Shown here: positions 3,564 to 19,193 of the stretch, piece after piece
Position numbering within the stretch: position 1 is the first letter of the stretch
Layout of the letters: every line of letters starts with the position of its first letter
Assembly (NCBI GenBank): GCA_017537105.1
Contig: JAFWBZ010000402.1
Span: 1-26,859 of the forward strand
Source: Clostridia bacterium
Lineage (GTDB): Bacteria > Bacillota > Clostridia > Christensenellales > Aristaeellaceae
Direction: 5' to 3'
Length of the DNA: 26,859 nt
Made by a program: the position numbers and the translations under genes
The notes under the pieces: generated by a model
Seen by the model: only the letters and a program-made list of their open reading frames with translations
Database searches by the model: none
Told to the model about the DNA's origin: nothing

Positions 3564-3746
3564 TTTCGTGACCTCCTTTATGGTTTGCGCCGCTGCGCGT
3601 CGCAGGGGCAGGAAGGGCTGCGCAGGTTTGCGATCTGTGTGCGGCGGGGATGCGCGTTCCCCGGCTGACAGGTGCATTATACGGAGCAATCCTGAAATGA
3701 AGCTTGAGAAATTTCAGCTTTCCTGAAAAAATGAGCGGCGCCCGGA

Positions 3747-3775
3747 TTGCCGATTTCCGGGCGGTGTGCTATGAT
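3747..3775 (+). promoter_or_regulatory. Putative sigma-A promoter for the ThuA-like gene
   Basis: TTGCCG (3747-3752), 17 nt, TATGAT (3770-3775), with an extended -10 TG. Confidence 0.7.
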
Positions 3776-3801
3776 GGGGAACAGACAGGAGGGATGCATG
3801 C

Positions 3802-4533
3802 ATGAAGCGCGCGTTGATTCTCTGCGGCGGCTGGCCGGGGCACGACCCCGTCGCCGTCGCCGGAAGGTTCCGGGGCCTGCTGGAGGCGCGTGGCTGCGCC
3901 GTGGAGACCATCGGTTCGACCGAGCCCTTTGCCGACGCGGGCTTCCTGCGCGGCTTTGACCTGCTGGTGCCGGTGTGGAGCTACGCCGGGACGCCTGCGC
4001 TGCCGGACGAGTGCGCGGTGCACATCGCGGACGCCGTCAGCGACGGCATGGGCATCGCGGGCTGCCACGGCGGCATGTGCGACGCCTTCCGGGAGAGCGT
4101 GCTGTGGCAGTTCCTCACCGGCGCCCAGTGGGTGGCGCATCCCAGCAATCCCTTCTACCACTGCACGCCCTGCGTGCCCTCACCGGAGGGCGCGTTTTTC
4201 CGGGAGTACACCGTGCACATCGAGGACGTCGATTCGCCCATCACCCTGGGCCTGCGGGACTTCCGCGTGCGCTCCGAGCAGTACTACCTCCACGTGGACC
4301 CGGCGGTGCGCGTGCTGGCCACCACCCGCTTCGCCCGGGAGGGGGACGAATACGCCCCGCACCTGACCGATGGTCCGGTGACGATGCCCGTGGCCTATGC
4401 GCGCCGGTGGGGGCGGGGGCGCATCTTCTACAGCTCCCTGGGCCACTGCGACGCGGAGTTCGACCGCTTTCCCGAGGCGCTGACGCTGATGTGCCGGGGC
4501 CTGCTGTGGGCGCTGGGAGAGGATCCGGAATAG
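3802..4533 (+). CDS. ThuA-like (class I glutamine amidotransferase-like fold) protein
   Basis: MKRALILCGGWPGHDP, G.HGGM.DAFR, GAQWVAHP, SEQYYLHVDP, MPVAYARRWGRGRIFYSSLGH match the ThuA family pattern. RBS GGAGG. Confidence 0.85.
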   Translation: MKRALILCGGWPGHDPVAVAGRFRGLLEARGCAVETIGSTEPFADAGFLRGFDLLVPVWSYAGTPALPDECAVHIADAVSDGMGIAGCHGGMCDAFRESVLWQFLTGAQWVAHPSNPFYHCTPCVPSPEGAFFREYTVHIEDVDSPITLGLRDFRVRSEQYYLHVDPAVRVLATTRFAREGDEYAPHLTDGPVTMPVAYARRWGRGRIFYSSLGHCDAEFDRFPEALTLMCRGLLWALGEDPE

Positions 4534-4617
4534 TACCGCCGGGCCCGGTCCCTGATCCGCCCGGCCCGGACCTCCCTTCGCCGCAAAAAAATATTTTTGA
4601 CAATTTGAATAAAACCC

Positions 4618-4716
4618 TTGACAAATACCGAGCGATTATTGTATGATAATCCTGCAATGTTGAGTTGCTGTTTTTATTGGAATTGAATTCAATCGATTTA
4701 ATTATATAACTATAAT
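4618..4716 (+). promoter_or_regulatory. AT-rich promoter region for the GH78-ABC operon, two candidate sigma-A promoters
   Basis: TTGACA (4618-4623), 18 nt, TATGAT (4642-4647); and TTCAAT (4688-4693), 17 nt, TATAAT (4711-4716). Confidence 0.6.
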
Positions 4717-4811
4717 TTGATCGATTCTTTTTCGGACGCGGGTGCAATCGATTTAATGCCGGGCGGCGGATTGCTCTCGTTTTTCAGCGGGTTGATTAAA
4801 TCGATTTAATG
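4688..4811. promoter_or_regulatory. Four copies of a LacI-type operator with core (A/G)ATCGATT
   Basis: AATCGATTTAAT 4691-4702; GATCGATTC 4719-4727; AATCGATTTAATG 4746-4758; perfect 16-bp palindrome ATTAAATCGATTTAAT 4795-4810. The central CG and A/T flanks are typical of LacI-family operators, and a LacI gene lies in the same operon. Confidence 0.75.
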
Positions 4812-4826
4812 ATTGCGGAGGCGGCT

Positions 4827-7520
4827 ATGTCGATCGTGCCACGCGCGCTGAAGTGCGATTTCAAGGTCAATCCCATCGGCGTCGGCAGCGCCCGGCCCCT
4901 GCTGGGCTGGCAGCTGGCGGAGGACCGCACCGGCGCGGGCCAGACGGCCTGGCGAGTCCAGGTGCGCGAGGAGGCGGGAAGCTGGAGCGCGCCGCTGTGG
5001 GACAGCGGCAGGGTCGAAACCGAGGCGCAGGCCACAGCCTATGCGGGCGCGGGGCTGCAATCCAACGCCACGTATCAATGGCGCGTCATGGTCTGGGACG
5101 AGGCGGGCGAGCCGGGCCCGTGGAGCGAGGCGGCCCGCTGGCGGCAGGGACTCACGCCTGGCGACTGGCGGGGCGCGTGGATCGGCGACGACGAGGGCCG
5201 GGACGGGTATGACCCCAGCGTGCCCTACTACTGCGCGGACGACTTCGACAAGGGCGAAAACCACCCCTTCCTGCCGAAGCCCGCGCTGCTGCGGAGCGAG
5301 TTTTCTGCGGGCGCCGGCGTGGCGTCGGCGGTGCTGTACGTCAGCGCGCTGGGGCTGACGGAGGTCTGGCTGAACGGCGAAAAGGCCACGGTCGGACACA
5401 TGATTCCCGGCATCTGCGACTACCGCAGGCGCGCCTACGCCTTCGCCTATGACGTCACCGGGCTGGTCCGCGACGGCGAAAACGCCCTGGCGGCGGTGCT
5501 GGCGGACGGCTGGTACGCGGGCTACATCGGGCTCAATCCCCGGCAGTGGTGGGGCGCGAAGCCCCGGCTGAACGCGGAGCTGCGCATCGAATACGCCGAC
5601 GGGCGCCGCCAGACGGTGGCGACGGACGCGGGCTGGCGTGCCTGCGTGGGCCCCTGGCTGTACGCCGACATCATGCACGGCGCGGGCTACGACGCCACGC
5701 TGGAGCCGGAGGGCTGGAAGCTGCCCGGCTATGACGACGCGGCCTGGCGGCCCGCGGACACCGGCGCGGAATACGACCACATGCCGGAAATGCACCCCGG
5801 CGTGCCCATCGTGGAGCACGCGCGCTACGCCCCCCGGGAGATCCGCTGGCGGAATGAGGACGAGGCGATCGTGGACTTCGGGCGCTGCTTTGCGGGCGTG
5901 ATCTGCGCGAAGCTGCGCGGGCCGCGGGGCGCGCGGGTGGACTTCTTCCACGCGGAGGAGCTCACCGAGGACGGAGAGGACCTCTACGAGTACGGCAACC
6001 GCTCCGCCCGCTGCCACGACTGCTGCGTGCTGTCCGGCGGGGGAGAGGAGATCTTCCAGCCGGAGTTCACCTACCACGGCTTCCGCTACGCCCGGGTGCG
6101 CGGCCTGTCAAAGGTCGAGCTGCTGTCCATCGAGGGCGTGGCGATCTCCAGCGCGCTGCCGGAGCCCACGGAGCTGGAGACCGGCAGCGATACCGTGAAC
6201 GCCGTCATCCAGCTGATTCGCAACACCGAGCAGTCGAACCTGTACGACATGCCCACCGACGTGTGCGCCCGGGACGAGCGCCTGGGCTGGGGCGCCGACG
6301 GACACTTCTTCATGCACACCGCCTCGACCCTGAACCACATCGCGCTGTTTTTGCGCAAGTGGCTGCGGGACGCCCTGGACGGCCAGGCGGAGGACGGGAG
6401 CCTGTGGGCCATCGCCCCGGCGGTGATGATGAAGGACATCACGCCCTTCGCGGGGGACCTGCAGTCCGACAGCGCGCTGCACTGCGCGTGGCTGCTGATG
6501 CGGCGCTACGGCGACATGGAGCCGGTGCGGCAGGCCTTCCCGGCGCTGGAGCGGTACTTTGCGTATTCCCTGGCCAATTCGGACCGGCTGCTGCGCTTCG
6601 CCACCGCCCACGACTGGCTGGACCTGTGGCCCGACGGCCACTCCGACCGCGACCACGGCTACGGACACTGCGACCCGACGCTGATCGGGACGGCCTGGTT
6701 CGCCCACTCCGCGGACATGATGGCGGACATCGCCGGGGCGCTGGGGGCGGCGGACCGCGCGGCGTACTACCGGGAGATGTACGAAAAGATCCGCACGGCC
6801 TTCCGGACGTTCTTTCTCCGGCGCGACAATCTGCTGCGCGGCGCTACCCAGGGCGGCTACCTGATGGCGGCGGCGTTCGGCCTGATCGGGGGTGAGGAGA
6901 TCGCGGCGGCCCGCGACTGGGTGCAGGCGGACATGCGCGCGTGCGGCGGCATCACCTGGGGCATCACCTCCGCGCCCATCGCGCTTACCGGCCTGTGCAG
7001 GCTGGGCCTGGCCCGGGAGGCGGCGGCGTTTTTGCGGCGCACCCGGTATCCGTCCTTCGGCTACATGCTCTCGCAGGGCGCCACCGCCGTGTGGGAGCGC
7101 TGGGACGGCATCTACGAGGGCAAAAAGTTCCCCCACCCGATGAACGCCTTCGACCACATCGGCCTGGCTTCGGCGGGCGCGTGGATCCTGAGCGGCCTGG
7201 CGGGCATCGAGCCGGCGGCGGACGGCTTTGCCCGGGTGTCGATCCGCCCGGTGATCGATCCCGAAATCGGATCGGTGCGGGCGGTGTACCCCAGCGTCCG
7301 CGGGCCCATCGGGGTCCACTGGCGCTGCGGGGCGGGCGAGGCCCGCGTGGAGGTGGCGCTGCCCGCCGGGGTGACCGGCGCGCTGGCGCTGCCGGTGGAA
7401 GCAAATGAACTTCGGACCATCCGCGGAGCGGAGGGCGTCTCCGGGACCCATTGTGCCGATGGCGTCACGGCGATGGACCTTGCCTCCGGGCGGTACGAAT
7501 TCAGAATAACTCTGCACTAA
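4827..7520 (+). CDS. Glycoside hydrolase family 78 (alpha-L-rhamnosidase family), no signal peptide
   Basis: GGAGG RBS before ATG 4827 (track start 4809). Motifs: YVSALGL.EVWLNG, LADGWYAGYIG, FQPEFTYHGFRY, PTD...RDERLGW..D, HDWL, GATAVWERW, MNAFDH, LAGIEP...GF..V.I.P. Confidence 0.9.
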   Translation: MSIVPRALKCDFKVNPIGVGSARPLLGWQLAEDRTGAGQTAWRVQVREEAGSWSAPLWDSGRVETEAQATAYAGAGLQSNATYQWRVMVWDEAGEPGPWSEAARWRQGLTPGDWRGAWIGDDEGRDGYDPSVPYYCADDFDKGENHPFLPKPALLRSEFSAGAGVASAVLYVSALGLTEVWLNGEKATVGHMIPGICDYRRRAYAFAYDVTGLVRDGENALAAVLADGWYAGYIGLNPRQWWGAKPRLNAELRIEYADGRRQTVATDAGWRACVGPWLYADIMHGAGYDATLEPEGWKLPGYDDAAWRPADTGAEYDHMPEMHPGVPIVEHARYAPREIRWRNEDEAIVDFGRCFAGVICAKLRGPRGARVDFFHAEELTEDGEDLYEYGNRSARCHDCCVLSGGGEEIFQPEFTYHGFRYARVRGLSKVELLSIEGVAISSALPEPTELETGSDTVNAVIQLIRNTEQSNLYDMPTDVCARDERLGWGADGHFFMHTASTLNHIALFLRKWLRDALDGQAEDGSLWAIAPAVMMKDITPFAGDLQSDSALHCAWLLMRRYGDMEPVRQAFPALERYFAYSLANSDRLLRFATAHDWLDLWPDGHSDRDHGYGHCDPTLIGTAWFAHSADMMADIAGALGAADRAAYYREMYEKIRTAFRTFFLRRDNLLRGATQGGYLMAAAFGLIGGEEIAAARDWVQADMRACGGITWGITSAPIALTGLCRLGLAREAAAFLRRTRYPSFGYMLSQGATAVWERWDGIYEGKKFPHPMNAFDHIGLASAGAWILSGLAGIEPAADGFARVSIRPVIDPEIGSVRAVYPSVRGPIGVHWRCGAGEARVEVALPAGVTGALALPVEANELRTIRGAEGVSGTHCADGVTAMDLASGRYEFRITLH

Positions 7521-7539
7521 TTTGAAGGAGGAAAATCCC

Positions 7540-8502
7540 ATGAAAAAGATCCTGGCTCTGGCACTCGCCCTGATGCTCGCCACCGTCGGCCTGACGTTCG
7601 CGATGGCGGAAGAACAGTACTACATCGGCTACTCCAACATGCAGCTGGCCGAGGACTTCTTCATCACCGTTTCCAACGGCCTGAAGAAGGCGGCCGAGGC
7701 GAACAACGTGAAGTTCGAGGAGACCATCGCCAACCGCGACGCCGTGCTGATGGCCCAGAACATCGAGGCCTTCCTGATGAAGGGCGTGGACATGGTCATC
7801 GACTTCAACGTGCTGGCCGAGACCGGCTCCGAGATGGCCGCCCGCTGCGCCGAGCAGAACGTGCCGATGATCTCCATCGACTGCCTGTATGACGGCGCCT
7901 ACTTCTTCGGTGTCGACAACTACGGTGCCGGCACCGCCCTGGGCGAGGGCGTCTGCGAGTTCGTGGACGAGAAGCTCGGCGGCGAGATCGAGTACATCGT
8001 GTCCCTGTGGGATTCCCAGAGCGGCGATACCATCAAGGCCCGCTGCGACGGCGTGGTGGACGTGCTGGCCGAGAAGTACGGCGTGGATGAGGAGCACATC
8101 GTGTGGGTCGACTCCCTGGCGGACGACGTCAAGACCGGCACCATGACCCGCGACTGGCTGAACAGCCATCCGGACGCCCACAAGATCGTGTTCATCGGCC
8201 AGAACGATGACCGCGGCTACGCCATCAACAACGCCGTGGAGACCCTGGGCCGCCGCGACGACTGCATCATCTGCTCCCACAACGCCGACCCGGCTTCCGT
8301 GGAGAACCTGCAGGCCCATCCCGACGGAGACACCGCCTGGGTGTGCACCGCTTCCTACAACTCCCACCTGTACGGCGAGCAGATCATGGACATGGCCCTG
8401 CGCATCCTGAACGGCGAGGAAGTGGCCCAGTCCGAGTACACCAAGGTCTCCGTCGTCTCCTACAAGAACGTCGCCGAGTACGTGGCGTCCCTGGAAGGCT
8501 GA
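7540..8502 (+). CDS. Sugar ABC transporter substrate-binding protein (RbsB / periplasmic-binding protein type 1 family)
   Basis: AAGGAGG RBS before ATG 7540. Signal peptide MKKILALALALMLATVGLTFAMA|E; FFITVSNGLKKAAE, IEAFLMKGVDMVI, GVDNYGAG, IGQNDDRGYA. Confidence 0.9.
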   Translation: MKKILALALALMLATVGLTFAMAEEQYYIGYSNMQLAEDFFITVSNGLKKAAEANNVKFEETIANRDAVLMAQNIEAFLMKGVDMVIDFNVLAETGSEMAARCAEQNVPMISIDCLYDGAYFFGVDNYGAGTALGEGVCEFVDEKLGGEIEYIVSLWDSQSGDTIKARCDGVVDVLAEKYGVDEEHIVWVDSLADDVKTGTMTRDWLNSHPDAHKIVFIGQNDDRGYAINNAVETLGRRDDCIICSHNADPASVENLQAHPDGDTAWVCTASYNSHLYGEQIMDMALRILNGEEVAQSEYTKVSVVSYKNVAEYVASLEG

Positions 8503-8515
8503 TCCCCCAACCCTG

Positions 8516-8543
8516 TCAGAAGCGGGAGCAATCCCGCTTCTGA
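8516..8543 (+). other. Perfect 12-bp stem-loop with a GCAA tetraloop after the substrate-binding protein gene
   Basis: TCAGAAGCGGGA-GCAA-TCCCGCTTCTGA, followed by TCTTT. Likely mRNA-stabilising or a partial terminator that raises binding-protein levels (inference). Confidence 0.7.
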
Positions 8544-8594
8544 TCTTTCGGAACCCACCCCCACGCAACCATGATACGGCAGGTGATAAGGCGC

Positions 8595-10082
8595 ATGAAT
8601 ATTCTTGAGATGAAGGACATTACCAAGGCCTTTCCGGGCATCGTCGCCAATGACCGCGTCAGCCTGACCCTGGAGAAGGGCGAGGTGCTGGCGCTGATCG
8701 GCGAGAACGGCGCGGGCAAGTCCACGCTGATGAAGATCCTCTCCGGCGCGCAGCGCCCGGACAGCGGCACGATCGTCATCGACGGGCAGACTCTGACCGG
8801 CTACAATACCCGCGAGGCCATCGATCTGGGCATCGGCATTGTTTATCAGGAACTGAATTATCTGGGCGCCTTGAGCATTGCCGAGAACCTGTACATCGGC
8901 AGGATTCCCGTGAAGGGAAGGCTGAAGAAGATCGACTATCCCACGCTCTTCGCCAAGGCGAAGGAGATCATGCAGGAGCTGGGCCTGGGGCACCTGGACC
9001 CGGCCACTCCGGTGGAGCAGCTCTCCACCGCGGAAAAGCAGCTGGTGGAGATCGCCCGGGCCTTTACCCGCGAGGTGAAGATCCTGGTGCTGGACGAGCC
9101 CACCAGCGCGCTGAGCGACACGGAGACGGAGGACCTGTTCAAGCTGATCCGCAGCTTCAAGCAGCGGGGCGTCTCCATCATCTACATTTCCCACCGGTTG
9201 AACGAGATCTTTGAGGTGGCCGACTCGGTGATGATCATGCGCGACGGCAAAAACGTCGCCCGCAGGCGCATCGCCGACACCTGCACCGACGAGCTGGTGC
9301 GGGACATGGTCGGCCGCGAGATCAAGGACATGTACCCCAAGCGCCAGGACATCGCCATCGGCAAGGAGGTCTTCCGGGTGAAGAACCTGCGGACGAACTT
9401 CCTGAAGGACGTGTCCTTCGACGTGCGCGAGGGCGAGGTCGTGGGCCTGTTCGGGCTGATGGGCTCGGGCCGCACGGAGATCGCCAACTGCATCATGGCG
9501 GTCCGGAAGTACGACAGCGCCGAGATGACCGTGGACGGCGCGGCCTACGCCCCGAAGAAGCCCCACGACGCGCTGGACAACGGCATCGCCTACGTGCCGC
9601 CCGAGCGCAAGAGCGACGGCATCACCGCGGTGCTGTCCGTGAAGGACAACATCACCATCGCCAATCTCCGCAAGTTCGCGCCCAAGGGCATCATGAACCT
9701 GAAGCAGGAGATGGCGCTGGCCCGGGACTGGGTCGAAAAGCTGAACATCAAGGTGCCCCAGATCCTGGCCCCGGTGGAGACCCTGTCCGGCGGCAACCAG
9801 CAGAAGGTGGTCGTGGCCAAGGAGCTGAACACCGAGCCCAAGGTGATGATCCTGAACGAGCCCACCCGCGGCGTGGATGTCGGCGCGAAGGTGGAGATCT
9901 ACAACCTGATCAACGACCTCTGCGACAGCCGGAAGGCCGTGCTGATGATCTCCTCGGAGCTTCCGGAGATCATGGCCATGGCGGACCGCATCTTCGTGCT
10001 CCACGAGGGGAGGATCACCGCGGAGGTTCCCAAGTCCGAATTCTCGCAGGAGACCCTGCTGAAATACGCAATAGGAGGCTGA
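8595..10082 (+). CDS. Sugar ABC transporter ATP-binding protein (RbsA/MglA type, two ABC domains)
   Basis: MNILEMKDITKAFPG, Walker A GENGAGKSTLMK, LDEPTS, YISHRL, LSGGNQQKVV, NEPTRGVDVGAK, ISSELPE. The start is moved to ATG 8595 (track start 8571). Confidence 0.95.
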   Translation: MNILEMKDITKAFPGIVANDRVSLTLEKGEVLALIGENGAGKSTLMKILSGAQRPDSGTIVIDGQTLTGYNTREAIDLGIGIVYQELNYLGALSIAENLYIGRIPVKGRLKKIDYPTLFAKAKEIMQELGLGHLDPATPVEQLSTAEKQLVEIARAFTREVKILVLDEPTSALSDTETEDLFKLIRSFKQRGVSIIYISHRLNEIFEVADSVMIMRDGKNVARRRIADTCTDELVRDMVGREIKDMYPKRQDIAIGKEVFRVKNLRTNFLKDVSFDVREGEVVGLFGLMGSGRTEIANCIMAVRKYDSAEMTVDGAAYAPKKPHDALDNGIAYVPPERKSDGITAVLSVKDNITIANLRKFAPKGIMNLKQEMALARDWVEKLNIKVPQILAPVETLSGGNQQKVVVAKELNTEPKVMILNEPTRGVDVGAKVEIYNLINDLCDSRKAVLMISSELPEIMAMADRIFVLHEGRITAEVPKSEFSQETLLKYAIGG

Positions 10083-10088
10083 CAGACC

Positions 10089-11060
10089 ATGACGGGCGCC
10101 AAAGAGCAAACCACCATCCAGAGGATACTTCGCAAGCTGATGAAGGGAAACATCTCGACGGTCATCGCGCTGATCATACTGTGCCTGATCTTCGGCTTTG
10201 CCTCCCCCTATTTCTTCACCTTCACCAACATCATGAACATCGGCACCTACGCCTCCATCATGGGCACGATGGCCTCCGGCCTCACGGTGGCCATGCTGCT
10301 GGGCGGCCTGGACGTGTCCCAGTACGCGCTGTCCGCGTTCTGCGGCATGATCCTGGGCATCCTGTATGAGAACGGATGGAACCCGTATCTCACCATGCTG
10401 ATCGTCATCCTGGTCGGCGCGGTGGGCGGCTGCCTGAACGCCTTCATCATCACGAAGATGCACGTCAGCCCCATCATCTGCACCATGGGCACCCAGTTCA
10501 TCTTCCGCGGCGGCGCCTACCTGCTCACGGACGGCCGGTACATCCGCATCAACGACCCGGTGTACAGCTTCATCGGCTCGGGCAAGATCGCGGGCATCCC
10601 CTTCTGCCTGATCGTCATGGCGGTGATCTACGTGGTCATCTGGTATGTGCTGAAGTACACCACCTACGGCCGGCAGGTGTTCGCCACCGGCGGCAACCCC
10701 AACGTGGCGCAGCTGGCGGGCATCGACACCGCGAAGATCCGCTTCATCTCCCACATCCTGGCGGCCATCACCGCGGCGCTGGGCGGCATCATCACCGTCT
10801 CCCAGACGGCGGCGGCCATGGCCAAGCACGGCGCGGGCAACGACATGGACGGCATCGCGGCGGTCATCCTGGGCGGCTCCAGCGTGGGCGGCAAGGGCCA
10901 GGTCACCGGCACGCTGTTCGGCATCCTGCTGCTGTCCGTGCTGGTCAACGGCATGACGCTTCTGAACGTGCAGGCCTACTGGCAGCAGGTCATCAAGGGC
11001 GGCGTGCTGATCTTCGCCGTGTTCATCGATTCCCTGCGCGGCAACGGACTGAGGGCGTGA
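10089..11060 (+). CDS. Sugar ABC transporter permease (RbsC family)
   Basis: Multiple hydrophobic segments; GGLDVS, PIICTMGT, TTYGRQVFATGGNPNVAQLAGI, IAAVILGG, WQQVIKG. RBS AGGAGG. Confidence 0.95.
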   Translation: MTGAKEQTTIQRILRKLMKGNISTVIALIILCLIFGFASPYFFTFTNIMNIGTYASIMGTMASGLTVAMLLGGLDVSQYALSAFCGMILGILYENGWNPYLTMLIVILVGAVGGCLNAFIITKMHVSPIICTMGTQFIFRGGAYLLTDGRYIRINDPVYSFIGSGKIAGIPFCLIVMAVIYVVIWYVLKYTTYGRQVFATGGNPNVAQLAGIDTAKIRFISHILAAITAALGGIITVSQTAAAMAKHGAGNDMDGIAAVILGGSSVGGKGQVTGTLFGILLLSVLVNGMTLLNVQAYWQQVIKGGVLIFAVFIDSLRGNGLRA

Positions 11061-11064
11061 CGAC

Positions 11065-12009
11065 ATGATCGAGAAAGTCAAATATGCCATGCTGTGCATG
11101 GCGCGCCAGTGCTGGGAACAGGGCGCCGCGGCCCAGGCCATGCTGGAGTGCGGGGATGTGCCCGCGCTGCTGCTGCTGGCCCGGGACTGCGTGGTGCGCC
11201 AGCGGGCGGACGGGCGGCTGTGCGACGTGGAGAACACGCCGGCCAGCGTGGACCCCGCCTGCTGCGTCGAGCCGGTGCTGGCGGCGGGCCGCATACTCGG
11301 GGACGAGAGCTATGCCGAGGCGGCCCGGCGAAACATCGACTACCTGCGCCACACCGCGCCCCGCGCGGAGGACGGCGCGCTCTACCACATGCTGGGGGAC
11401 GAGGAGATCTGGGCCGACGGCCTAGCCATGGGCCCCCACGTGCTGATGGCGGCGGGCTACCTCGACGAGGGCTATCGCTATTACCAAGCGATCCGGCGCA
11501 GGCTGCTGGACCCGGAGACGGGCCTGTTCCGCCACAAGTGGCACGAGGGTCGGCAGTGCTTCACGCGCCCCTGCTTCTGGGGCGTGGGCAACGGCTGGGC
11601 GCTGGTGGGCCTGATGCGCATGACGAAGGCGCTGATGGACGCGGGCGATCCCCGGGCGGACGCGCTGGCGGCGGACTATCGCGCCCTGGCGGACGCCATG
11701 CGGCCGCTGCAGGCCGAAAACGGGCTGTTCCACGACATGCTGGACGACGAACACACATTTTACGAGAGCGAGACGGCGGAAATGTTTGCCTATACGCTCT
11801 ACAATATGGTATCATGGAAAAAACTGGATGCGTCGTATCTCGCGGACGCGGACCGCGCCCGGGAAGCCGTCAACCGCCGGCTCACGCCGGACGGGCTGCT
11901 GACCGGCAGCGCCGGATCTCCGCTGTTTGAGACCGAGGGCACCTCCGTGGAGGCGCAGGCGCATTGGATCATGATGGATACCGCCGCGCGGGCGCTGGGC
12001 AGGCCGTAG
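11065..12009 (+). CDS. GH88/GH105-like (alpha/alpha)6-barrel protein, divergent
   Basis: IWADGLAMGP (cf. W.D.L.M), GLFRHKW, FWGVGNGWALVGL (cf. W.RGNGW), QAENGLFHDML, ESETAEMFAY. Confidence 0.75.
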   Translation: MIEKVKYAMLCMARQCWEQGAAAQAMLECGDVPALLLLARDCVVRQRADGRLCDVENTPASVDPACCVEPVLAAGRILGDESYAEAARRNIDYLRHTAPRAEDGALYHMLGDEEIWADGLAMGPHVLMAAGYLDEGYRYYQAIRRRLLDPETGLFRHKWHEGRQCFTRPCFWGVGNGWALVGLMRMTKALMDAGDPRADALAADYRALADAMRPLQAENGLFHDMLDDEHTFYESETAEMFAYTLYNMVSWKKLDASYLADADRAREAVNRRLTPDGLLTGSAGSPLFETEGTSVEAQAHWIMMDTAARALGRP

Positions 12010-12057
12010 CTTTCGCCGCCCGCCCGCTCCGGCGGGGCGCGCGAAAGAGGGGATACC

Positions 12058-13167
12058 ATGGCGAGGGCAAAGGCGGCGGAGACCGGCGAGCGCGGAAAGC
12101 GCCGCAGCACGATCTACGACGTGGCGAAGCGGGCGGGCGTGTCCGCGGGCACGGTTTCCCACGTGCTGAACGGCACCGCGCCGATCTCGCAGGAGACCCG
12201 CGTCCGCGTGCTGGACTCCGTGCGGGAGCTGGGCTACAGCCGCAACGAGAACGCCCGGGCGCTGCGGACCGCCGATTCCAAGATCATCGGCGTGGTGCTG
12301 CAGGACATCTCGTCGGAGTATTACGCCCAGTGCACCGCCTGCATCCTGCAGCGCGCCCAGGAGGAGGGCTACGCCGTGCTGACCACGGACGCGCACTTCT
12401 CCCCGAAGGTGCTGAAGACCGGCGTGTCCGCGCTGGTGAACCGCCGGGTGAACGGCCTGATCTTCGTCGGCGGCTCCCACGACCGGGAGAGCTACGAGCT
12501 GGCCCACGCGGCCGGGGTGCCCATCGTGTTCGGCGACCGCTACGTCGAGGACTTTCCCTGCGTGCAGTTCAACAACCACGAGACGCTGTATCGGCTGGTG
12601 CGCGCCCTCTACCGGCAGGGTTACCGGGAATTCTGCTACTACGGCGAGCAGCTGAGCTCCCAGCAGAACCTGGAGCAGCGCTTCGGCGGCTTCCGGGACG
12701 CGGTGCGGGACTTGGGCGTGCCCGAAGAGAACTGCGAGGTCATCCTGCAGGAGAACCTGGACAGCAGCAAGATGAAGAAGGCCTTCGACTACTTCCACCA
12801 GGGCATGCTGAAGTCCCGGCGGGAGGGCAGCCGGTCGGTCATACTGACCTCCAACGACATGATCGCCCAGGGCGTCATCTCCGCCGTGCGGCGCTCCGGG
12901 CTGCGCGTACCGGAGGACATCGCCGTGTTCGGCTTCGACAACATCAGCATCTCCGCCTACGCGCTGCCATCCATCTCCACGGTGGCGCAGGACCCCTATC
13001 TGCTGGGCGACCGGTGCTTCGAGCTGCTGCTGGAGCGGATGCGCAATCCCCGGGGGCCGGTGGAAAACGTGATGCTGGAGCAGAAGATCGTGCTGCGGGA
13101 ATCCGTCCCGCTGGAGGAGGCATACGTGCGCGGCGAGGGACTGGCCCTGTACGACGGGGCGGATTGA
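12058..13167 (+). CDS. LacI-family transcriptional regulator
   Basis: HTH TIYDVAKRAGVSAGTVSHVLNG, LGYSRNENARAL, and VPEDIAVFGFDN...PSISTV. Confidence 0.95.
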   Translation: MARAKAAETGERGKRRSTIYDVAKRAGVSAGTVSHVLNGTAPISQETRVRVLDSVRELGYSRNENARALRTADSKIIGVVLQDISSEYYAQCTACILQRAQEEGYAVLTTDAHFSPKVLKTGVSALVNRRVNGLIFVGGSHDRESYELAHAAGVPIVFGDRYVEDFPCVQFNNHETLYRLVRALYRQGYREFCYYGEQLSSQQNLEQRFGGFRDAVRDLGVPEENCEVILQENLDSSKMKKAFDYFHQGMLKSRREGSRSVILTSNDMIAQGVISAVRRSGLRVPEDIAVFGFDNISISAYALPSISTVAQDPYLLGDRCFELLLERMRNPRGPVENVMLEQKIVLRESVPLEEAYVRGEGLALYDGAD

Positions 13168-13272: not shown

Positions 13273-14259
13273 ATGGAATCCATCAATCTGGGCAAGACGG
13301 GGCTCCAGATCCGGAGGATCGGTCTCGGCAGCTGGGCGATCGGCGGTCCCTGCATGGACGGCGGCGCCCAGATGGGCTGGGGAGACGTGGACGACGAGCA
13401 GTCCGTGCGCGCCATCCGCCGGGCCGTGGAGCTGGGCGTCAACTACATCGACACCGCCAACATCTACGGCGCGGGCCACAGCGAGGAGGTCGTGGGCCGC
13501 GCGGTCCGGGGCATCCGGGACGAGGTGGTGATCTCCACCAAGTTCGGCATCCTCTGCGATCCTGTCGCGAAGTGCACCACGGGCATCATCCGGGAGGCCG
13601 GCGAGGTGGCCCGCTCCTGCGAGGATTCGCTGCGGCGGCTGGGGACGGACCGCATCGACCTGCTGCTGTTCCACCTGGGCAGCTGCGCGCCGGAGTTTGC
13701 CGCGGAGGTACGCGAGGCGCTGGAGGCGCTGGTGCGCGCGGGGAAGATCCGCGCCTACGGCTGGTCGACCGAGGACGCGGCCTGCGCCCGGATCTTCGCC
13801 GAGGGCGAGCACTGCGCGGCGTTCATGCACATCGGAAACGTGCTGGAGGACTACCCGGACATGATCGCGCTGTGCGAGGAGACGGGCATGATCAGCCTGT
13901 GCCGCTCGCCGCTGTGCATGGGGCTGCTCACGGGGAAGTACGGCACGGACACCCGCTTCGCCGCCAACGATCTGCGGGGCCGGAACGCCCCGGCGTGGAT
14001 GCAGTACTTCGTGGACGGCAAGCCCAACCCGGAGCTGCTGCGCAGGCTGGACGGCATACGGTCCGTGCTCACCTCCGGCGGCCGCACGCTGGCCCAGGGC
14101 TGCCTGGCGTGGCTGTGGGGGCGCAGCCCGCAGACCGTGCCGGTGCCCGGCTTCCGCACGGAGCGCCAGGCCGAGGACAACGCCCGGGCGCTGGAGTTCG
14201 GCCCGCTGACCCCCGCGCAGATGGCCGAGATCGACGGGATCCTGGGAAGGAACGCCTGA
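13273..14259 (+). CDS. Aldo/keto reductase
   Basis: IGLGSWAIGG, GVNYIDTANIYGAGHSEE, ISTKFG, SLRRLGTDRIDLLLFH, GKIRAYG, SPLCMGLLTGK, VPVPG. RBS GAGGAGG. Confidence 0.93.
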   Translation: MESINLGKTGLQIRRIGLGSWAIGGPCMDGGAQMGWGDVDDEQSVRAIRRAVELGVNYIDTANIYGAGHSEEVVGRAVRGIRDEVVISTKFGILCDPVAKCTTGIIREAGEVARSCEDSLRRLGTDRIDLLLFHLGSCAPEFAAEVREALEALVRAGKIRAYGWSTEDAACARIFAEGEHCAAFMHIGNVLEDYPDMIALCEETGMISLCRSPLCMGLLTGKYGTDTRFAANDLRGRNAPAWMQYFVDGKPNPELLRRLDGIRSVLTSGGRTLAQGCLAWLWGRSPQTVPVPGFRTERQAEDNARALEFGPLTPAQMAEIDGILGRNA

Positions 14260-14326
14260 CCGAGAGACGGGAAGAAGAGGGGTTCTTCGCGTTTTCCCGG
14301 GGAGAAAACTGCACTTTTCAACGATT

Positions 14327-14356
14327 TGAGCCCGGAAGCGCTTGCTTCCGGGCTCA
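14327..14356. terminator. Perfect 13-bp hairpin between convergent AKR and VOC genes, probable bidirectional terminator
   Basis: TGAGCCCGGAAGC-GCTT-GCTTCCGGGCTCA. Confidence 0.7.
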
Positions 14357-14370
14357 TGGACGTTTTCCGG

Positions 14371-14751
14371 TCAATACCGCTGGTTGAACTCCAGCTTTTC
14401 GCGGTTGGGACCGAGGATGGTGAAGTACTTCACGCCCCGCTCGAAGAAGGGCAGCGCGCCCTCCTCGATGACCTCGAGGTGCATCGCGTCCGCGATCCTG
14501 CGGGCCTCGTCCACGTCGGTGACGTTGATGGCGATGTGGTCCACCGCGCCCGCGGTCCCCACGGCCTTGAAGTTCTGGTAGGTCTCGATCACCAGGTCGC
14601 CCAGCTGCATGAACGCCACCAGCTCGCCGTTGTTGTCTGCGCGGAAGATCACCTCGAAGCCCAGCGCGGTGTAGAACGCCACGGTGGCCTCGATGTCGTT
14701 GGTGGGCACGCCGATGTGCTGAAGCCCGGTCGCCAGCTTGGAAAATGCCAT
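14371..14751 (-). CDS. VOC / glyoxalase-family protein (126 aa)
   Basis: This is the 3' part of track ORF 14371..15612. RBS GGGAGG before ATG 14751; QHIGVPTNDIEATVAFY..LGF, IETY, DHIAINVTDVD, GPNREKLEF show the paired beta-alpha-beta-beta-beta repeat with His/Glu metal ligands. Confidence 0.88.
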   Translation of the reverse strand: MAFSKLATGLQHIGVPTNDIEATVAFYTALGFEVIFRADNNGELVAFMQLGDLVIETYQNFKAVGTAGAVDHIAINVTDVDEARRIADAMHLEVIEEGALPFFERGVKYFTILGPNREKLEFNQRY

Positions 14752-14786
14752 GGAAATGCCTCCCTTTCGTTGATTCCCGTGCCTCC

Positions 14787-14815
14787 ATTGTAGCACAGAT
14801 CCGGGGAGAAGACAA
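14787..14815 (-). promoter_or_regulatory. Putative sigma-A promoter for the VOC gene
   Basis: Minus strand TTGTCT (14815-14810), 17 nt, TACAAT (14792-14787), with an extended -10 TG. Confidence 0.65.
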
Positions 14816-14822
14816 CGCGAAA

Positions 14823-15818
14823 CTACCGAAATACCTGGCAGGGGATGCCCTCCCGCTCGAAGACGTCGAGGAAGTATTTCGGCGCGGCGGCCTCGTCGAA
14901 CTCCGGCGCGTAGGTCCGCCCCACCATGTCGTACTTCGCCCCGGCGGCCCGCTGGTAGGGCAGCACATCCACCCGCACCAGCGACTTCGCGCCTTTGACC
15001 AGTTCTGCCACGGTTTCGAAGTGCTCTCGTTCGTCGTTGACGCCGGGGATGATGGGCATGCGCAGGATGAAGGGCGTGTCCCCCGCGGCCAGCATCCGGG
15101 CGTGGCGGCGGATGGGGGCCTGGTCCACGCCGGTGTAGCGCCGGTGTGCCTCCGGGTCGGATACCTTCCAGTCCATCATCACCAGGTCCAGCTTCTCCAT
15201 GACCTGCGCGAACACCGCGTCGGTGGTGAAGCCGCTGGTCTCGACGGCGGTGTGCACGCCCGCCAGCCGGTCGAGCACCCCGGAGACGAAGTCCCACTGT
15301 AACAGCGGCTCGCCGCCGGAGAAGGTCACGCCGCCGCCGGTGGCGCGGAACACGTCGGCGTCCTTGTTGAGCCGCGCGGCCAGGTCCTCCGCGGTCCATG
15401 CCGTGCCGGCGATCTTCCGGAAGCCGCCCCGGCACGCCGGGACGCAGGCGCCGCAGGCGGTGCAGCCCTTGGGCTGCCAGCAGCCGCCCGTTGGGACTTC
15501 GGCGCCGAGGGGACACGCCCGTTCGCAGGCCCCGCAGTGCACGCAGGCGGCGGTGGAGACCATCAGCTGCGGCTTTGGCGACAGGCCTTCCGGGTTGTGG
15601 CACCACTGGCACCTGAGCGGGCAGCCCTTCATGAACACCGTGGTCCGGATGCCCGGACCGTCGAACACGGCAAATTCCTTGATGTCGAATACGATGCCCA
15701 CAGCAGTCGCGCCATTACGCGCTTGCGCGGGCGCGGCCAGCCCGCGCTGGAATCCGCAGGATTCGTGCGGCGCTGTCGCCGCTTGCCCTTTGGGCTGTAG
15801 CGGTGATGCGTTACTCAT
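14823..15818 (-). CDS. Glycyl-radical enzyme activating enzyme (radical SAM) with a ferredoxin-like insert
   Basis: FDGPGIRTTVFMKGCPLRCQWCHNPE (CX3CX2C); two CX2CX2CX3C motifs (CVHCGACERAC, CTACGACVPAC); GGVTFSGGEP, HTAVETSG, RMPIIPGVND. The start is uncertain: ATG 15818 overlapping the GRE stop, or GTG 15701. Confidence 0.93.
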   Translation of the reverse strand: MSNASPLQPKGQAATAPHESCGFQRGLAAPAQARNGATAVGIVFDIKEFAVFDGPGIRTTVFMKGCPLRCQWCHNPEGLSPKPQLMVSTAACVHCGACERACPLGAEVPTGGCWQPKGCTACGACVPACRGGFRKIAGTAWTAEDLAARLNKDADVFRATGGGVTFSGGEPLLQWDFVSGVLDRLAGVHTAVETSGFTTDAVFAQVMEKLDLVMMDWKVSDPEAHRRYTGVDQAPIRRHARMLAAGDTPFILRMPIIPGVNDEREHFETVAELVKGAKSLVRVDVLPYQRAAGAKYDMVGRTYAPEFDEAAAPKYFLDVFEREGIPCQVFR

Positions 15819-17839
15819 ACGAGCAGCTCAGCCCTTCGGATGATGTGGTCCTGGTAGCACTTGTCCAGCTCCACGAAGTAGCCGCTCCAGCCCCACACGC
15901 GCACGATCAGGTTGCGGTAGTTCTCCGGGTGTTTCTGGGCATCCAGCATGCGCTCGCGGTTGACGGTGTTCAGCTGCAGCTGGTGGCCGCCCCGCTGCAC
16001 GAACAGCCGCACCAGCTGGGCCACCTTGGTGATGGACTCCTCCTGGCTGAACACGCTGTCGGAGAACTCGATGGTCAGCGGGCCGCCATTGATGGTCCGG
16101 CGCAGGTCGGGCTTGGAGAAGCTCTTGATCAGCGAAACGGGGCCGTTCAGCCGGATGTTCAGCGAGGGCGCGTAGTTGGCCGGCAGCGGCACGCCCGCCT
16201 CCCGGCCGTCCGCGGTGGCGCCCAGCTCGTTGGCGTGGAAGATGTAGAACATGGCCGAGCCCGTGCCCGCGCGAATGATGCCGCCGCGCTCGTTGTGGAG
16301 TCCCTCCACGGCGTCCGCGAAGGTGTCCAGCAGCCAACCCACGAGACCGTCCACCCGGTCGTCGTCGTTGCCGGCCTTGGGGCAGTGGTATTTCAGCTGA
16401 TCCCGCAGCGCGTCGTGGCCCACGAAGTTGTCCGCCATGGCCCGCAGCAGCGCCTCCGGCGCGGTATCGCCGTGGAACACCTCCTGGTCCACCGCCGCCA
16501 GCATGTCCGCCGCCGGGGCGACGCCGGTGCCGTGCAGACCCCAGTTGTTGTATTTGCAGCCCAGGGAGATGTCCCGGCCGCTTTCCAGGCAGCCGTCGAA
16601 GAACAGCGACAGGTAGGGCGAGGGGATGACGTACAGGTTCCTCCGCTCCGCCAGGGTCTTGCGCACGTCGGCGAAGATCGCCTCCCGCACGAGGGCCTTG
16701 ACCTCCTCGAGAGAGCGGCAGGCGGTCAGGTGCTCCCGGAGCACCCGGTCCACGATGTTGGCGAAGGGCAGCGCGCCGATGTTCACGATGTCCATGGCGC
16801 GGCCGGGGATGATGAACTCCCAGCAGGCCGCCATGGCGTAGTTTCGGGCGTCCTCTGTGTCGTAGCCCAGCGCCTCCAGGCCGGGGATGGCCACGTCGTC
16901 GTTCTCGTACTGGGGGAAGCCCAGGCCCAGCTTCGTCAGCTGCGTGCCCAGCTCGTACACCTCCAGCGGCGTGTCCTTATTCACCCGCAGGTTGATCTTC
17001 GGGTCGATCAGCCGAAGCTCCGCGGAGGCCTTCAGACACCACTTCGACAGCAGGTTGAAGCCGTCCGTGCCGTCGGGCAGCATGCCGCCCAGCACGATGC
17101 TCTGGCCGTTGTCGCCCTGCTGCATGCCGGGGTACAGGTCGCTGTCCCGGTTGCAGGCGAGGAAGAAGGCCTCCAGCAGCTCGAAGGCGCTCTCCTCGGT
17201 CTCCCGGCCGGCCTCCAGGTCGGCCCGGAGGTAGGGGATCATGGTCTGGTCGAAGCGGCCCATCGTGTTGTGGTAGTCGCCCTCGCACCACATGGCGTAG
17301 TGCAGTATCCGCAGCGACTGCAGCGCCTCCCGGAAGGTGCGCGGCGGCAGCGCCGGCACCCGGTCCAGCACCTCCGCCAGCGCCTCGTCGCCCTTTGCCC
17401 GGGCGGCGGCGGCGTAGCGCGCCGTCAGCTTTAGCACCGCGTCGATGGAGATGCGCATGGCCCGGTGCAGCTCGCCCTCGCCCAGTTTTTCCCGCCACGC
17501 CAGGAGGCCCACGGAGATCACGGAGGCGTAGTCCGGCGACAGGTTGGACACGTTGCCCAGCTCGTGGATGAAGTGCCCTTCGGTGATGGCGGCCCACTCC
17601 GCGTCGTCGAAGATGCGGGGTAGATTCGGCACCGTGCGGGTGAAGGCGATGATCTCGTTGTCAAACAGGTACGGCGTCTCCATCTCAAGCGCCTGCTTCA
17701 GCCGCAGCGCCGTGCGAAGGGTGTCCGGCAGGGACCGGTCCCGGTAGGTCAATTCGAGGTCCTCCGGCAGCGCGATGCGCGCGGCGTGGTGCAGGCGCTC
17801 CCACTGGAAGTGCATCAGGGCCCGTATGCGTTCCGTCAT
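15815..17839 (-). CDS. Glycyl radical enzyme (PFL superfamily), uncharacterised, 674 aa
   Basis: RBS AAGGAG. GRFDQ, DPKINLRV, Cys loop YAMAACWE (C339/E341), GNDDDRVD, GATADGR.AG.PL, and C-terminal DAQKHPENYRNLIVRVWGWSGYF (glycyl radical site G650). Confidence 0.93.
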   Translation of the reverse strand: MTERIRALMHFQWERLHHAARIALPEDLELTYRDRSLPDTLRTALRLKQALEMETPYLFDNEIIAFTRTVPNLPRIFDDAEWAAITEGHFIHELGNVSNLSPDYASVISVGLLAWREKLGEGELHRAMRISIDAVLKLTARYAAAARAKGDEALAEVLDRVPALPPRTFREALQSLRILHYAMWCEGDYHNTMGRFDQTMIPYLRADLEAGRETEESAFELLEAFFLACNRDSDLYPGMQQGDNGQSIVLGGMLPDGTDGFNLLSKWCLKASAELRLIDPKINLRVNKDTPLEVYELGTQLTKLGLGFPQYENDDVAIPGLEALGYDTEDARNYAMAACWEFIIPGRAMDIVNIGALPFANIVDRVLREHLTACRSLEEVKALVREAIFADVRKTLAERRNLYVIPSPYLSLFFDGCLESGRDISLGCKYNNWGLHGTGVAPAADMLAAVDQEVFHGDTAPEALLRAMADNFVGHDALRDQLKYHCPKAGNDDDRVDGLVGWLLDTFADAVEGLHNERGGIIRAGTGSAMFYIFHANELGATADGREAGVPLPANYAPSLNIRLNGPVSLIKSFSKPDLRRTINGGPLTIEFSDSVFSQEESITKVAQLVRLFVQRGGHQLQLNTVNRERMLDAQKHPENYRNLIVRVWGWSGYFVELDKCYQDHIIRRAELLV

Positions 17840-17884
17840 CTCCGATCAGCTCCTTTTTTCGAGGGCGGAAAGTGCGTTCGTCCG

Positions 17885-17908
17885 GGGGATGTTAACGTTA
17901 ACATCCCC
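17885..17908. promoter_or_regulatory. Perfect 24-bp palindromic LacI-type operator
   Basis: GGGGATGTTAACGTTAACATCCCC lies just downstream of the GRE promoter -10 element. The AACGTT centre is typical of LacI operators. Confidence 0.85.
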
Positions 17909-17916
17909 TCGCTTCC

Positions 17917-17945
17917 ATTATCGCACAGCCGCGCCGGAAAGTCAA
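17917..17945 (-). promoter_or_regulatory. Putative sigma-A promoter for the GRE operon
   Basis: Minus strand TTGACT (17945-17940), 17 nt, GATAAT (17922-17917), with an extended -10 TG. Confidence 0.75.
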
Positions 17946-18000
17946 GCAAAAAGGCGGGGCGCGGCCGCATGAATGTGCGACTGCGGTTCACCTTTTGCAT

Positions 18001-18029
18001 TTGCGCATTTGCCGCGAGTGTGGTATGAT
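18001..18029 (+). promoter_or_regulatory. Putative sigma-A promoter for the divergent LacI gene
   Basis: TTGCGC (18001-18006), 17 nt, TATGAT (18024-18029), with an extended -10 TG. Confidence 0.65.
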
Positions 18030-18082
18030 GGTCCCAACGACGGCGCGCCGGGGCGGACCGGGGCGCGGGGGAGGGCGGCGAA

Positions 18083-19102
18083 ATGCACAACGGGCGCAGA
18101 AAGGTGACGCTGCGGGACCTGGCGGAGGCCACGGGCTTCAGCGTGAACACGGTCTCCCGGGCGCTGCGGGGCGAGAAGCGCATCGCGCCGGAGACGCTCC
18201 AGAAGATCCTGGAGGCCCAGGCCCGCATGGGCTACATCCACAACACGCTGGCCTCCTCGCTGCGGCGCGGCTACACCAACACCATCGCGGTGATCCTGGG
18301 CGACGTGTCCAACCCCCACTTCGGGGTGATGATGAGCGAGATCGAGGCCCGGGCCCGCGCCCGGGGCTACGCCGCCTTTCTGCAGACCACCAGCGAGGAC
18401 GAGGCGCTGGAGCGCGCCGCGATCCAGTCTGCGGTGAACAAGAGCGTGGACGGCATCCTCATCTGCCCCTGCCCGCAGAGCGGGCAGAACCTGCACACGC
18501 TGGCGTCGCTGGGCATCCCCTTCGTGCTGGTCGGGCGGCGCAGCGCCGCGGTGGACGCCGACTACGTGATCTGCAACGACGAGCTGGGCGGCTGGCAGGC
18601 CACCCGGGCCCTGATCGAGCGCGGCCACCGGCGCATACTGATGCTGCAGGGCGATCCGGAGATCTCCAGTGCCCGGGAGCGCCTGGCGGGCTACCGCAGG
18701 GCGCTGGACGAGGCGGGCATCGAATATGACCCGCGCCTGGTGCGGGAGGGCTCCGTCATGGGCAAGGACAACGAGGCGCTCTACGCGCAGATCCTCTCGG
18801 AAGATCTGGGCTTCACCGCCGCCTTCGCCTTCAGCGACCTCATCGCCTGGGACTTCTGGCGCTTCCTGCACGGCCGGGGCATCGAGGTGCCGCGGGATCT
18901 CTCCTTGGTGGGCTTCGACAACATCCAGTCCCGGCTGTCCATCCCCTTCGGGCTCACCTCCATCCGCACCTACAAGGGCCGCATGTCCGTGGAGGCCGTG
19001 GACCTGTTGGTGCGCCGCATGCGCGGCGAGGGCGATCCCGCGCCCGCCCGCGTGGTCATCGACACCGCCCTCGCGCCGGGGGAGACGGTGCGGACCGTCT
19101 AA
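18083..19102 (+). CDS. LacI-family transcriptional regulator, divergent from the GRE operon
   Basis: HTH VTLRDLAEATGFSVNTVSRALRG, MGYIHNTLASSL, and VPRDLSLVGFDN...LTSI. Confidence 0.95.
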   Translation: MHNGRRKVTLRDLAEATGFSVNTVSRALRGEKRIAPETLQKILEAQARMGYIHNTLASSLRRGYTNTIAVILGDVSNPHFGVMMSEIEARARARGYAAFLQTTSEDEALERAAIQSAVNKSVDGILICPCPQSGQNLHTLASLGIPFVLVGRRSAAVDADYVICNDELGGWQATRALIERGHRRILMLQGDPEISSARERLAGYRRALDEAGIEYDPRLVREGSVMGKDNEALYAQILSEDLGFTAAFAFSDLIAWDFWRFLHGRGIEVPRDLSLVGFDNIQSRLSIPFGLTSIRTYKGRMSVEAVDLLVRRMRGEGDPAPARVVIDTALAPGETVRTV

Positions 19103-19151: not shown

Positions 19152-19193
19152 CGCCGGCCGCGCCGCACCCCAACGGCGCGGCCGGCGCTTTTT
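19152..19193 (+). terminator. Rho-independent terminator after LacI
   Basis: 14-bp perfect stem CGCCGGCCGCGCCG / CGGCGCGGCCGGCG followed by CTTTTT. Confidence 0.8.

Follow-up and report, generated by a model that had tools for sequence, protein, structure and literature searches.

Which reaction does a compact glycyl radical enzyme (GRE) of a Clostridia bacterium catalyze, and on which substrate? The question is raised by a 26,859-nucleotide stretch of DNA, hereafter the window, i.e., the whole stretch that was analyzed, from contig JAFWBZ010000402.1 of assembly GCA_017537105.1 (Christensenellales; Aristaeellaceae). In it, the GRE gene (15815–17839, minus strand) is followed by the gene of its activating enzyme and lies next to a divergently oriented gene for a LacI-family repressor, here LacI_2. 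GREs carry out reactions beyond the polar chemistry of anaerobes, and newly assigned members have reshaped the picture of gut metabolism, as in the conversion of choline to trimethylamine and the metabolism of hydroxyproline, isethionate and anhydroglucitol. A superfamily review of June 2026 enumerates formate lyases, decarboxylases, X-succinate synthases, eliminases acting on C–O, C–N and C–S bonds, isomerases and aminoacyl radical enzymes, and describes entire clades without validation. Judged by sequence, the window GRE is an intact, well-defined member of a large uncharacterized clade of compact GREs. Our preferred reading, to which we give a probability of about one half, is that the GRE and its activase constitute a LacI-repressed two-gene module for thiyl-radical C–O cleavage on a free, unphosphorylated monosaccharide or alditol, with an L-arabinose-type sugar as the best candidate.

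Assignment to the glycyl radical enzymes

The GRE gene encodes 674 amino acids with a PFL-like (pyruvate formate-lyase-like) barrel (PF02901, E 2e-83) and a C-terminal Gly_radical domain (PF01228, E 9e-21), and the protein shows both loops reported by the initial annotation. The cysteine loop YAMAACWEF has a single cysteine (C339, W340, E341; AACWEF is encoded at 16814–16831 with the C339 codon at 16823–16825, minus strand), and the glycine loop reads VRVWGWSGYF (G650; RVWGWSG is encoded at 15881–15901 with the G650 codon at 15890–15892, minus strand). The tryptophans that had been called atypical are present in both loops and are unusual, but the glycine loop stays inside the published GRE fingerprint, RVxG[FWY]x6-8[FL]x4Qx2[IV]x2R as given in the June 2026 review. 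The match is complete (R647 V W G650 W, x6, L658, x4, Q663, x2, I666, x2, R669); the tryptophan before G650 occupies the free "x" position, where it is uncommon, and the one after it is a permitted residue. C339 aligns with C433 of glycerol dehydratase (GD) and with the catalytic cysteine of PflD.

The activase, a GRE-activating radical-SAM enzyme of 331 amino acids (14823–15818, minus strand), starts within the end of the GRE gene, its start overlapping the GRE stop by 4 nt in an arrangement of translational coupling. It carries the CX3CX2C motif (C66x3C70x2C73) and two ferredoxin-type Cx2Cx2Cx3C motifs (C92–C102 and C119–C129), the two-cluster ferredoxin insert noted initially, and it passes the NCBIfam model TIGR02494 with 284 bits at a cut-off of 174. 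Barrel, glycine domain, fingerprint, catalytic cysteine and coupled activase gene are all found, and by these features the protein is a member of the GRE superfamily in its PFL-like division.

None of the NCBIfam GRE models reached its cut-off with the window GRE. The best of them, TIGR01774 (PFL2/glycerol dehydratase), scored 322 bits vs. 678, the equivalogs for HypD, CutC, HpfG, HpsG, IAD and HPAD all fell far under theirs, and the PFL equivalog TIGR01255 gave 59 bits vs. 994; identity with any curated GRE equivalog was rejected on these scores and on motifs. Characterized GREs of high identity, which would have spoken against a separate subfamily, were looked for, and the closest solved or Swiss-Prot relative was PflD at 25–26% identity. 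The best solved structures (E. coli PflD, C. butyricum GD, CutC, HypD and the GRE 1,2-propanediol dehydratase, PD) are about equidistant from the window GRE. An AlphaFold2 model (pLDDT 92.6, pTM 0.92; input, a 29-sequence family alignment) gave query-normalized template modeling (TM) scores in Foldseek of 0.84–0.88 to PflD, GD, HypD, CutC and PD at 24–25% identity, and it resembles true PFLs less (TM 0.68) than eliminases (0.87). The Cys-x-Glu (CxE) motif of GRE 1,2-eliminases and isomerases is present as C339-W340-E341 and invariant in the clade. According to the review, this motif is common to GRE isomerases, and an adjacent Cys-Cys pair is exclusive to PFL and TdcE. With one cysteine, a CxE motif and a PFL score far under the cut-off, the early statement that the enzyme is not a PFL stands.

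The nearest known system is PflD/YbiW of E. coli and Streptococcus (PDB 8yjo, 8id0, 8id7), the best match to the family profile (E 2.5e-126; TM 0.87). The review describes PflD/YbiW as GRE "isomerases" with ring-opening activity on 1,5-anhydromannitol-6-P and 1,5-anhydroglucitol-6-P. A single Cys-x-Glu loop and a full barrel are common to both, and the PflD/YbiW substrates are sugar-derived. However, the residue between cysteine and glutamate is tryptophan in the window GRE and valine in PflD/YbiW, the residue before the radical glycine is tryptophan rather than alanine, and the window GRE is about 90 residues shorter, chiefly at the N-terminus. GD (C. butyricum, 1r8w) and PD (5i2a, 9rco) share the fold (TM 0.87–0.88), the CxE motif and the presumed mechanism of H abstraction, deprotonation and C–O elimination. 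Relative to GD, about 61 N-terminal residues are absent from the window GRE, and no microcompartment accompanies it.

The compact clade and its sister

The compact clade is large: a scan that took a single genome for each GTDB species found a relative in 396 species, and metagenomes from gut and rumen contribute hundreds of clusters at 90% identity. More than 120 such clusters are at least 75% identical to the window GRE and mostly exactly 674 amino acids long, and they bear only the generic name "pyruvate formate-lyase". When 1.8 billion representatives at 50% identity were searched, full-length relatives (640–710 amino acids) were found down to ~39% identity, with AACWE and R[VI]WGWS conserved in all of them. 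The short chain, put at roughly 100 residues under the usual length in the initial annotation, is shared by the whole clade.

A maximum-likelihood tree of 105 sequences and 763 columns places the 27 core representatives in one clade (SH-aLRT 100, stem 0.65); the groups were defined by motifs, and the motif columns are a handful of the 763. The core clade nests with 690–745-amino-acid proteins carrying RVWGFS and (A/G)C(W/Y)E (SH-aLRT 99) and is set apart from 62 classical GCVE/RVAG(Y/F)S sequences. Together with the missing NCBIfam assignment and the low identity to PflD, this supports the uncharacterized subfamily proposed initially. No characterized member of the compact clade was found in the June 2026 review or in further literature searches.

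Invariant or nearly so in the core clade are N99, H190, R195, D197, Q240, D243, N244, Q246, A338, C339, W340, E341, F342, N353, R523, G525, G527, Y532 and RVWGWS. The sister clade (RVWGFS, (A/G)CWE(P), 690–745 amino acids) shares the tryptophan before the radical glycine, the tryptophan after the cysteine and Asn99, but it has Leu190 for histidine, Thr244 for asparagine, Lys523 for arginine and Phe651 for tryptophan. Because of these four exchanges the sister clade likely acts on another substrate than the core clade. Its representatives include P0159, P0161, P0165, P0170, P0171, P0216, P0237 and P0238 and are likewise uncharacterized.

Active site by alignment

Profile alignment to GD equates Cys433 and Glu435 with C339 and E341 of the window GRE. 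According to the review, GD His164 acts as the general acid that protonates the leaving hydroxyl. This general-acid histidine of the GRE C–O dehydratases (GD, PD, HypD) is replaced by the invariant Asn99 in the compact clade; the position is occupied by histidine in PflD and by aspartate in CutC. Further, GD Asp447 corresponds to Asn353, the GD Tyr339 loop is shortened with the family motif QQGDNGQS (240–247) in its place, and GD Gln636, Gly638 and Tyr640 correspond to Arg523, Gly525 and Gly527. With asparagine at position 99, the general-acid role must, on this alignment, fall to His190, Asp243 or Tyr532, or else the substrate must offer a better leaving group. The many polar invariant residues would fit a polyhydroxylated substrate.

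The shortening of the chain is accounted for mainly by ~61 absent N-terminal residues (family position 69 aligns with GD 130) and, for the remainder, by several loop deletions. Since the N-terminal helices form the conserved GRE dimer interface (review), the quaternary structure of the compact GREs may differ from that of known GREs.

Gene neighborhoods across species

Gene neighborhoods were compared in the 80 best loci among the 396 species with a relative. Genes were called by a per-locus codon-usage score and clustered, and the flanking genes were tallied by Pfam family (n = 71 upstream, n = 70 downstream). Almost all of these loci are from uncultured gut and rumen Clostridia (labels Christensenellales, Oscillospiraceae, Acutalibacter and Candidatus Ventricola), and Ligaoa zhengdingensis NSJ-31 is the only cultured organism among them. 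Constant across the 80 loci are the GRE and its activase only. The gene immediately upstream often overlaps or is separated by only 1–50 bp, with the same orientation, and its recurrent types are GH51 alpha-L-arabinofuranosidase (9/71), LacI (8/71), GH127 beta-L-arabinofuranosidase (4/71), ATG22/MFS transporter (4/71), AraA (3/71), flavoprotein reductase (3/71), aldo-keto reductase (AKR; 2/71) and UxuA (2/71), with GH43 and melibiase-like genes also occurring. Downstream, CUT2 sugar transporters of the ATP-binding cassette (ABC) type were counted in 4 of 70. By tblastn, GH51, GH127, GH43 or AraA genes lie within 10 kb in 19 of the 80 loci, and at least one sugar-related marker was detected in 34. 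These neighborhoods back the sugar or polyol substrate that had initially been suggested by the LacI gene.

Individual loci illustrate the association. In L094, the order is a 2,264-amino-acid SLH-anchored GH127+GH43 enzyme, activase, GRE and aldose 1-epimerase (mutarotase); the giant protein (2165–8956) contains GH127, GH43, ricin-lectin, fn3 and 3-keto-disaccharide-hydrolase-like domains. In Ligaoa (L092), a GH2 giant protein, LacI, activase, GRE, ABC ATPase, permease and binding protein follow one another, and in L067–L069 a divergent AraA stands beside GRE, activase, an MglB-like binding protein and ABC genes. The binding proteins of the LacI-activase-GRE loci are of the RbsB type. By their families, the MglB-like and RbsB-like binding proteins point to the ligand class, a monosaccharide or polyol, and no further.

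Predicted repressor and operator

LacI_2 (18083–19102, plus strand; 339 amino acids) has an N-terminal LacI helix-turn-helix and an effector domain that resembles periplasmic sugar-binding proteins, and a strong intrinsic terminator (19152–19187, plus strand; 14 G-C pairs, then a T-run) follows its gene. Between the divergent genes lies a sigma-70-like promoter of the GRE operon (17917–17945, minus strand; TTGACT, 17-nt spacer, TG-GATAAT, 10/12 positions). A perfect 24-bp palindrome with a central CG, GGGGATGTTAACGTTAACATCCCC (17885–17908; core TGTTAACGTTAACA), a putative LacI-type operator, directly follows the -10 box of this promoter and precedes the start codon of the GRE gene by 46 bp. 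With up to three mismatches allowed, its 16-nt core matches a single site in the window, and none of 100 shuffles contained one. The divergent repressor and the perfect palindrome described initially were thus both recovered. The predicted operator overlaps the transcription start, which a bound LacI_2 would cover, and this geometry fits repression. The core also fits the general CcpA cre consensus, and catabolite control could act at the same site.

LacI_2 homologues adjoin the GRE in 12 of the 80 species loci. Loci L092, L097, L098, L100 and L101 contain sites that read TTAACG(A/T)TAAC and resemble the window core; often arranged in tandem, they precede the LacI gene or occupy the interval from LacI to activase. 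In L100, ATGTTAACGATAACAT lies 35 bp upstream of the activase. The recurrence of operator-like sites in distant LacI-activase-GRE loci supports a dedicated, predicted regulator-operator pair that travels with the GRE. In Ligaoa zhengdingensis NSJ-31, tandem TTAACG(A/T)TAAC sites at 7406–7427, 8710–8725 and 14359–14386 precede the LacI gene, the activase gene and the binding-protein gene, respectively. This suggests a single putative regulon of LacI, activase, GRE, ABC genes and binding protein in that species.

A genome-wide operator search of the 67%-complete window genome returned a single further site, TGTGAACGTTCACA (C26:4157–4170, locus L105). The site is flanked by a DUF4432 (mutarotase-like) gene and an M24 peptidase-like gene, which are followed by a different LacI and a CUT2 ABC transporter, and it probably belongs to a separate sugar regulon. 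With this sole extra site at an unrelated LacI locus, the search provided no clue to the substrate.

Proposed function and alternatives

In the mechanism that we propose by analogy with the CxE GREs, for which the review describes a glycyl radical store, a thiyl radical and a glutamate base, the activase would install the radical on Gly650, from where it would pass to Cys339. The Cys339 thiyl radical would then abstract a hydrogen atom from a substrate carbon that bears a hydroxyl, and this hydroxyl would be deprotonated by Glu341. The resulting ketyl radical would expel the neighboring C–O substituent, either water or a ring oxygen, and the product radical would regain hydrogen from Cys339. 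The product, a deoxy-keto or ring-opened sugar, would be open to further processing by ordinary enzymes, in the window perhaps the AKR and the glyoxalase-like protein encoded nearby. LacI_2 would sit on the palindrome at the transcription start until freed by the sugar or a derivative.

The wealth of invariant polar residues, together with ABC importers, a mutarotase and a lack of kinase and phosphotransferase system (PTS) genes in these neighborhoods, favors a free sugar or alditol as substrate over a small diol, a sugar phosphate or an acid. ABC importers deliver unphosphorylated sugars. A more far-reaching version, that the whole clade performs radical C–O chemistry directly on a free plant monosaccharide or alditol with an Asn/His190/Arg523 site in place of histidine-based acid catalysis, is tentative and in our judgment leans toward the doubtful. 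The substrate could then be L-arabinose, perhaps in the furanose form released by GH51, GH127 and GH43 enzymes, or a related sugar.

Several observations weigh against a radical enzyme for free arabinose-type sugars. The neighborhood counts are raw and were taken without a random-gene background, over half of the 80 loci had no recognized sugar gene within 10 kb, and in some loci the neighbors are unrelated (purine genes; TetR with a flavoprotein reductase). AraA occurs alongside the GRE in three of four genomes checked, and a replacement of AraA by the GRE was rejected on this ground; their coexistence points to a GRE that supplements the isomerase pathway. AraA is also absent from the window's own genome, but at 67% completeness this absence carries no information. 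The arabinose link itself is missing from the window, where the sugar genes point to rhamnose or rhamnogalacturonan, and the loss of the general-acid histidine may, from the alignment, mean a chemistry other than simple dehydration. Public runs labeled as RNA hold near-identical contigs that extend over genes and spacers alike, at low, even depth and mixed with relatives, a pattern that does not amount to evidence of transcription.

One alternative is that the enzyme is a short-chain diol or glycerol dehydratase for 1,2-propanediol, ethylene glycol or glycerol that, without a microcompartment, disposes of the reduced end products of rhamnose or pentose fermentation. Rhamnose and some pentose routes give lactaldehyde or glycolaldehyde, the nearest solved structures include GD and PD, and besides a rhamnosidase the window encodes an AKR similar to methylglyoxal/lactaldehyde-type reductases. 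We nevertheless consider this unlikely, as both GD His164 and GD Asp447 are asparagines here, the pocket has many invariant polar residues and an arginine beyond the needs of a C2–C3 diol, regulators and transporters are monosaccharide-type, and the neighbor Pfam tallies are without aldehyde or alcohol dehydrogenase, phosphotransacylase and shell genes. An equally improbable candidate is a ring-opening isomerase of the PflD/YbiW kind that acts on a phosphorylated anhydro-alditol or sugar phosphate. PflD is the top match in sequence and fold and has the CxE motif in common with the window GRE, but the identity is only 25–30%, the PflD histidine at the GD-164 position is an asparagine, and the PTS, kinase and aldolase genes of the PflD/YbiW context occur neither in the window nor as recurrent neighbors in the Pfam tallies, where ABC importers recur instead.

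The C–S lyases IslA, IseG and HpsG bind sulfonate with an Arg/Gln/Arg triad, and the invariant Arg523 probably lies on the strand where these enzymes carry a sulfonate-binding arginine. The spacing of 127 residues between Arg523 and the radical glycine would match that between Arg678 and Gly805 of IslA, which is a lead only. An anionic substrate, i.e., a uronate-derived deoxy-keto acid, an aldonate or a hydroxy-sulfonate, would also agree with the GH88/105-like and UxuA genes among the neighbors. Its chances are slim, slightly below those of the dehydratase and isomerase alternatives, as the other two sulfonate-binding positions are unassigned in the window GRE, most recurrent neighbors handle neutral sugars, and neither sulfite reductase nor uronate isomerase genes recur in the loci. 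A pyruvate or 2-ketobutyrate formate-lyase, the function implied by the database names of the relatives, is the least credible of all and can practically be dismissed: the cysteine loop (A-A-C-W-E) has one cysteine where two adjacent ones are needed, and both the PFL equivalog score and the fold comparison place the enzyme far from PFLs.

If true, radical C–O cleavage on a free sugar or alditol would mean a new oxygen-sensitive entry into pentose and deoxyhexose catabolism in gut and rumen anaerobes. More generally, assigning a substrate to this strongly conserved clade, which is tied to plant cell-wall sugar genes and has no characterized member, would extend the set of reactions by which carbohydrates are broken down anaerobically in ruminants and humans and would show a GRE working without the usual general-acid histidine and with tryptophans flanking both radical residues. 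The cultured carrier Ligaoa zhengdingensis NSJ-31 and the defined predicted repressor-operator pair make the proposal directly testable.

Local context of the window

The window genome comprises 2.57 Mb in 402 contigs, and the DNA runs that hold the stretch are mostly from bovine gut. A glycan-use cluster on the plus strand (4809–13167) encodes a GH78 rhamnosidase (4809–7520), a CUT2 ABC transporter consisting of sugar-binding protein (7522–8502), ATPase (8571–10082) and permease (10089–11060), a GH88/105-like hydrolase (11065–12009) and a second LacI (12058–13167). It is followed by the AKR gene (13273–14259, plus strand; 328 amino acids), whose best, sub-threshold match is the methylglyoxal reductase YdjG. 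For the GH88/105-like protein, too, the top NCBIfam match is sub-threshold; it is the model "beta-galactosidase BglB", not one for unsaturated glucuronyl hydrolase. No close solved relative of the sugar-binding protein was found. The initial annotation had listed no microcompartment, kinase or transporter genes in the operon, which holds for the GRE-activase pair itself; the CUT2 transporter (7522–11060), however, lies 4.8 kb away and is colinear with the GRE in two congeners.

Within the genus, the GRE is patchy and occurs in 3 of 25 genomes searched, the window's own included. In the two congeners, GH78, binding protein, ABC ATPase, permease, GH105, LacI, AKR, GRE and activase genes follow one another on one strand, with the AKR 30 bp upstream of the GRE and without the divergent LacI_2 (loci L019/L023 of G018 and L020/L091 of G024, compared with window positions 13273–17839). 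As judged from gene order, the window GRE-activase pair is inverted relative to the congeners and LacI_2 and the palindrome are gained, a local rearrangement predicted to rewire regulation. An AKR orthologue was found in exactly the same three genomes as the GRE (32 genus genomes searched).

A gene of the glyoxalase/VOC superfamily (14371–14751, minus strand; 126 amino acids; PF00903, E 6.5e-10), absent from the initial description, lies 71 bp downstream of the activase gene on the same strand, with its own ribosome-binding site and a promoter-like site at 14815–14787. It may be the third gene of the GRE-activase unit. No homologue was found in the other GRE loci examined. With the AKR specific to the genus and the glyoxalase-like gene specific to the window, both are local hints only, and they were rejected as conserved partners of the GRE; here, they hint at a product that is a reactive carbonyl compound. 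An open reading frame on the plus strand over the glyoxalase-like gene (14326–14793; 155 amino acids) matches no family and is probably its shadow frame. Elsewhere in the window genome, contig C29 encodes two further full-length GREs (L006, L007) of 803 and 825 amino acids, which are 33–34% identical to the window GRE.

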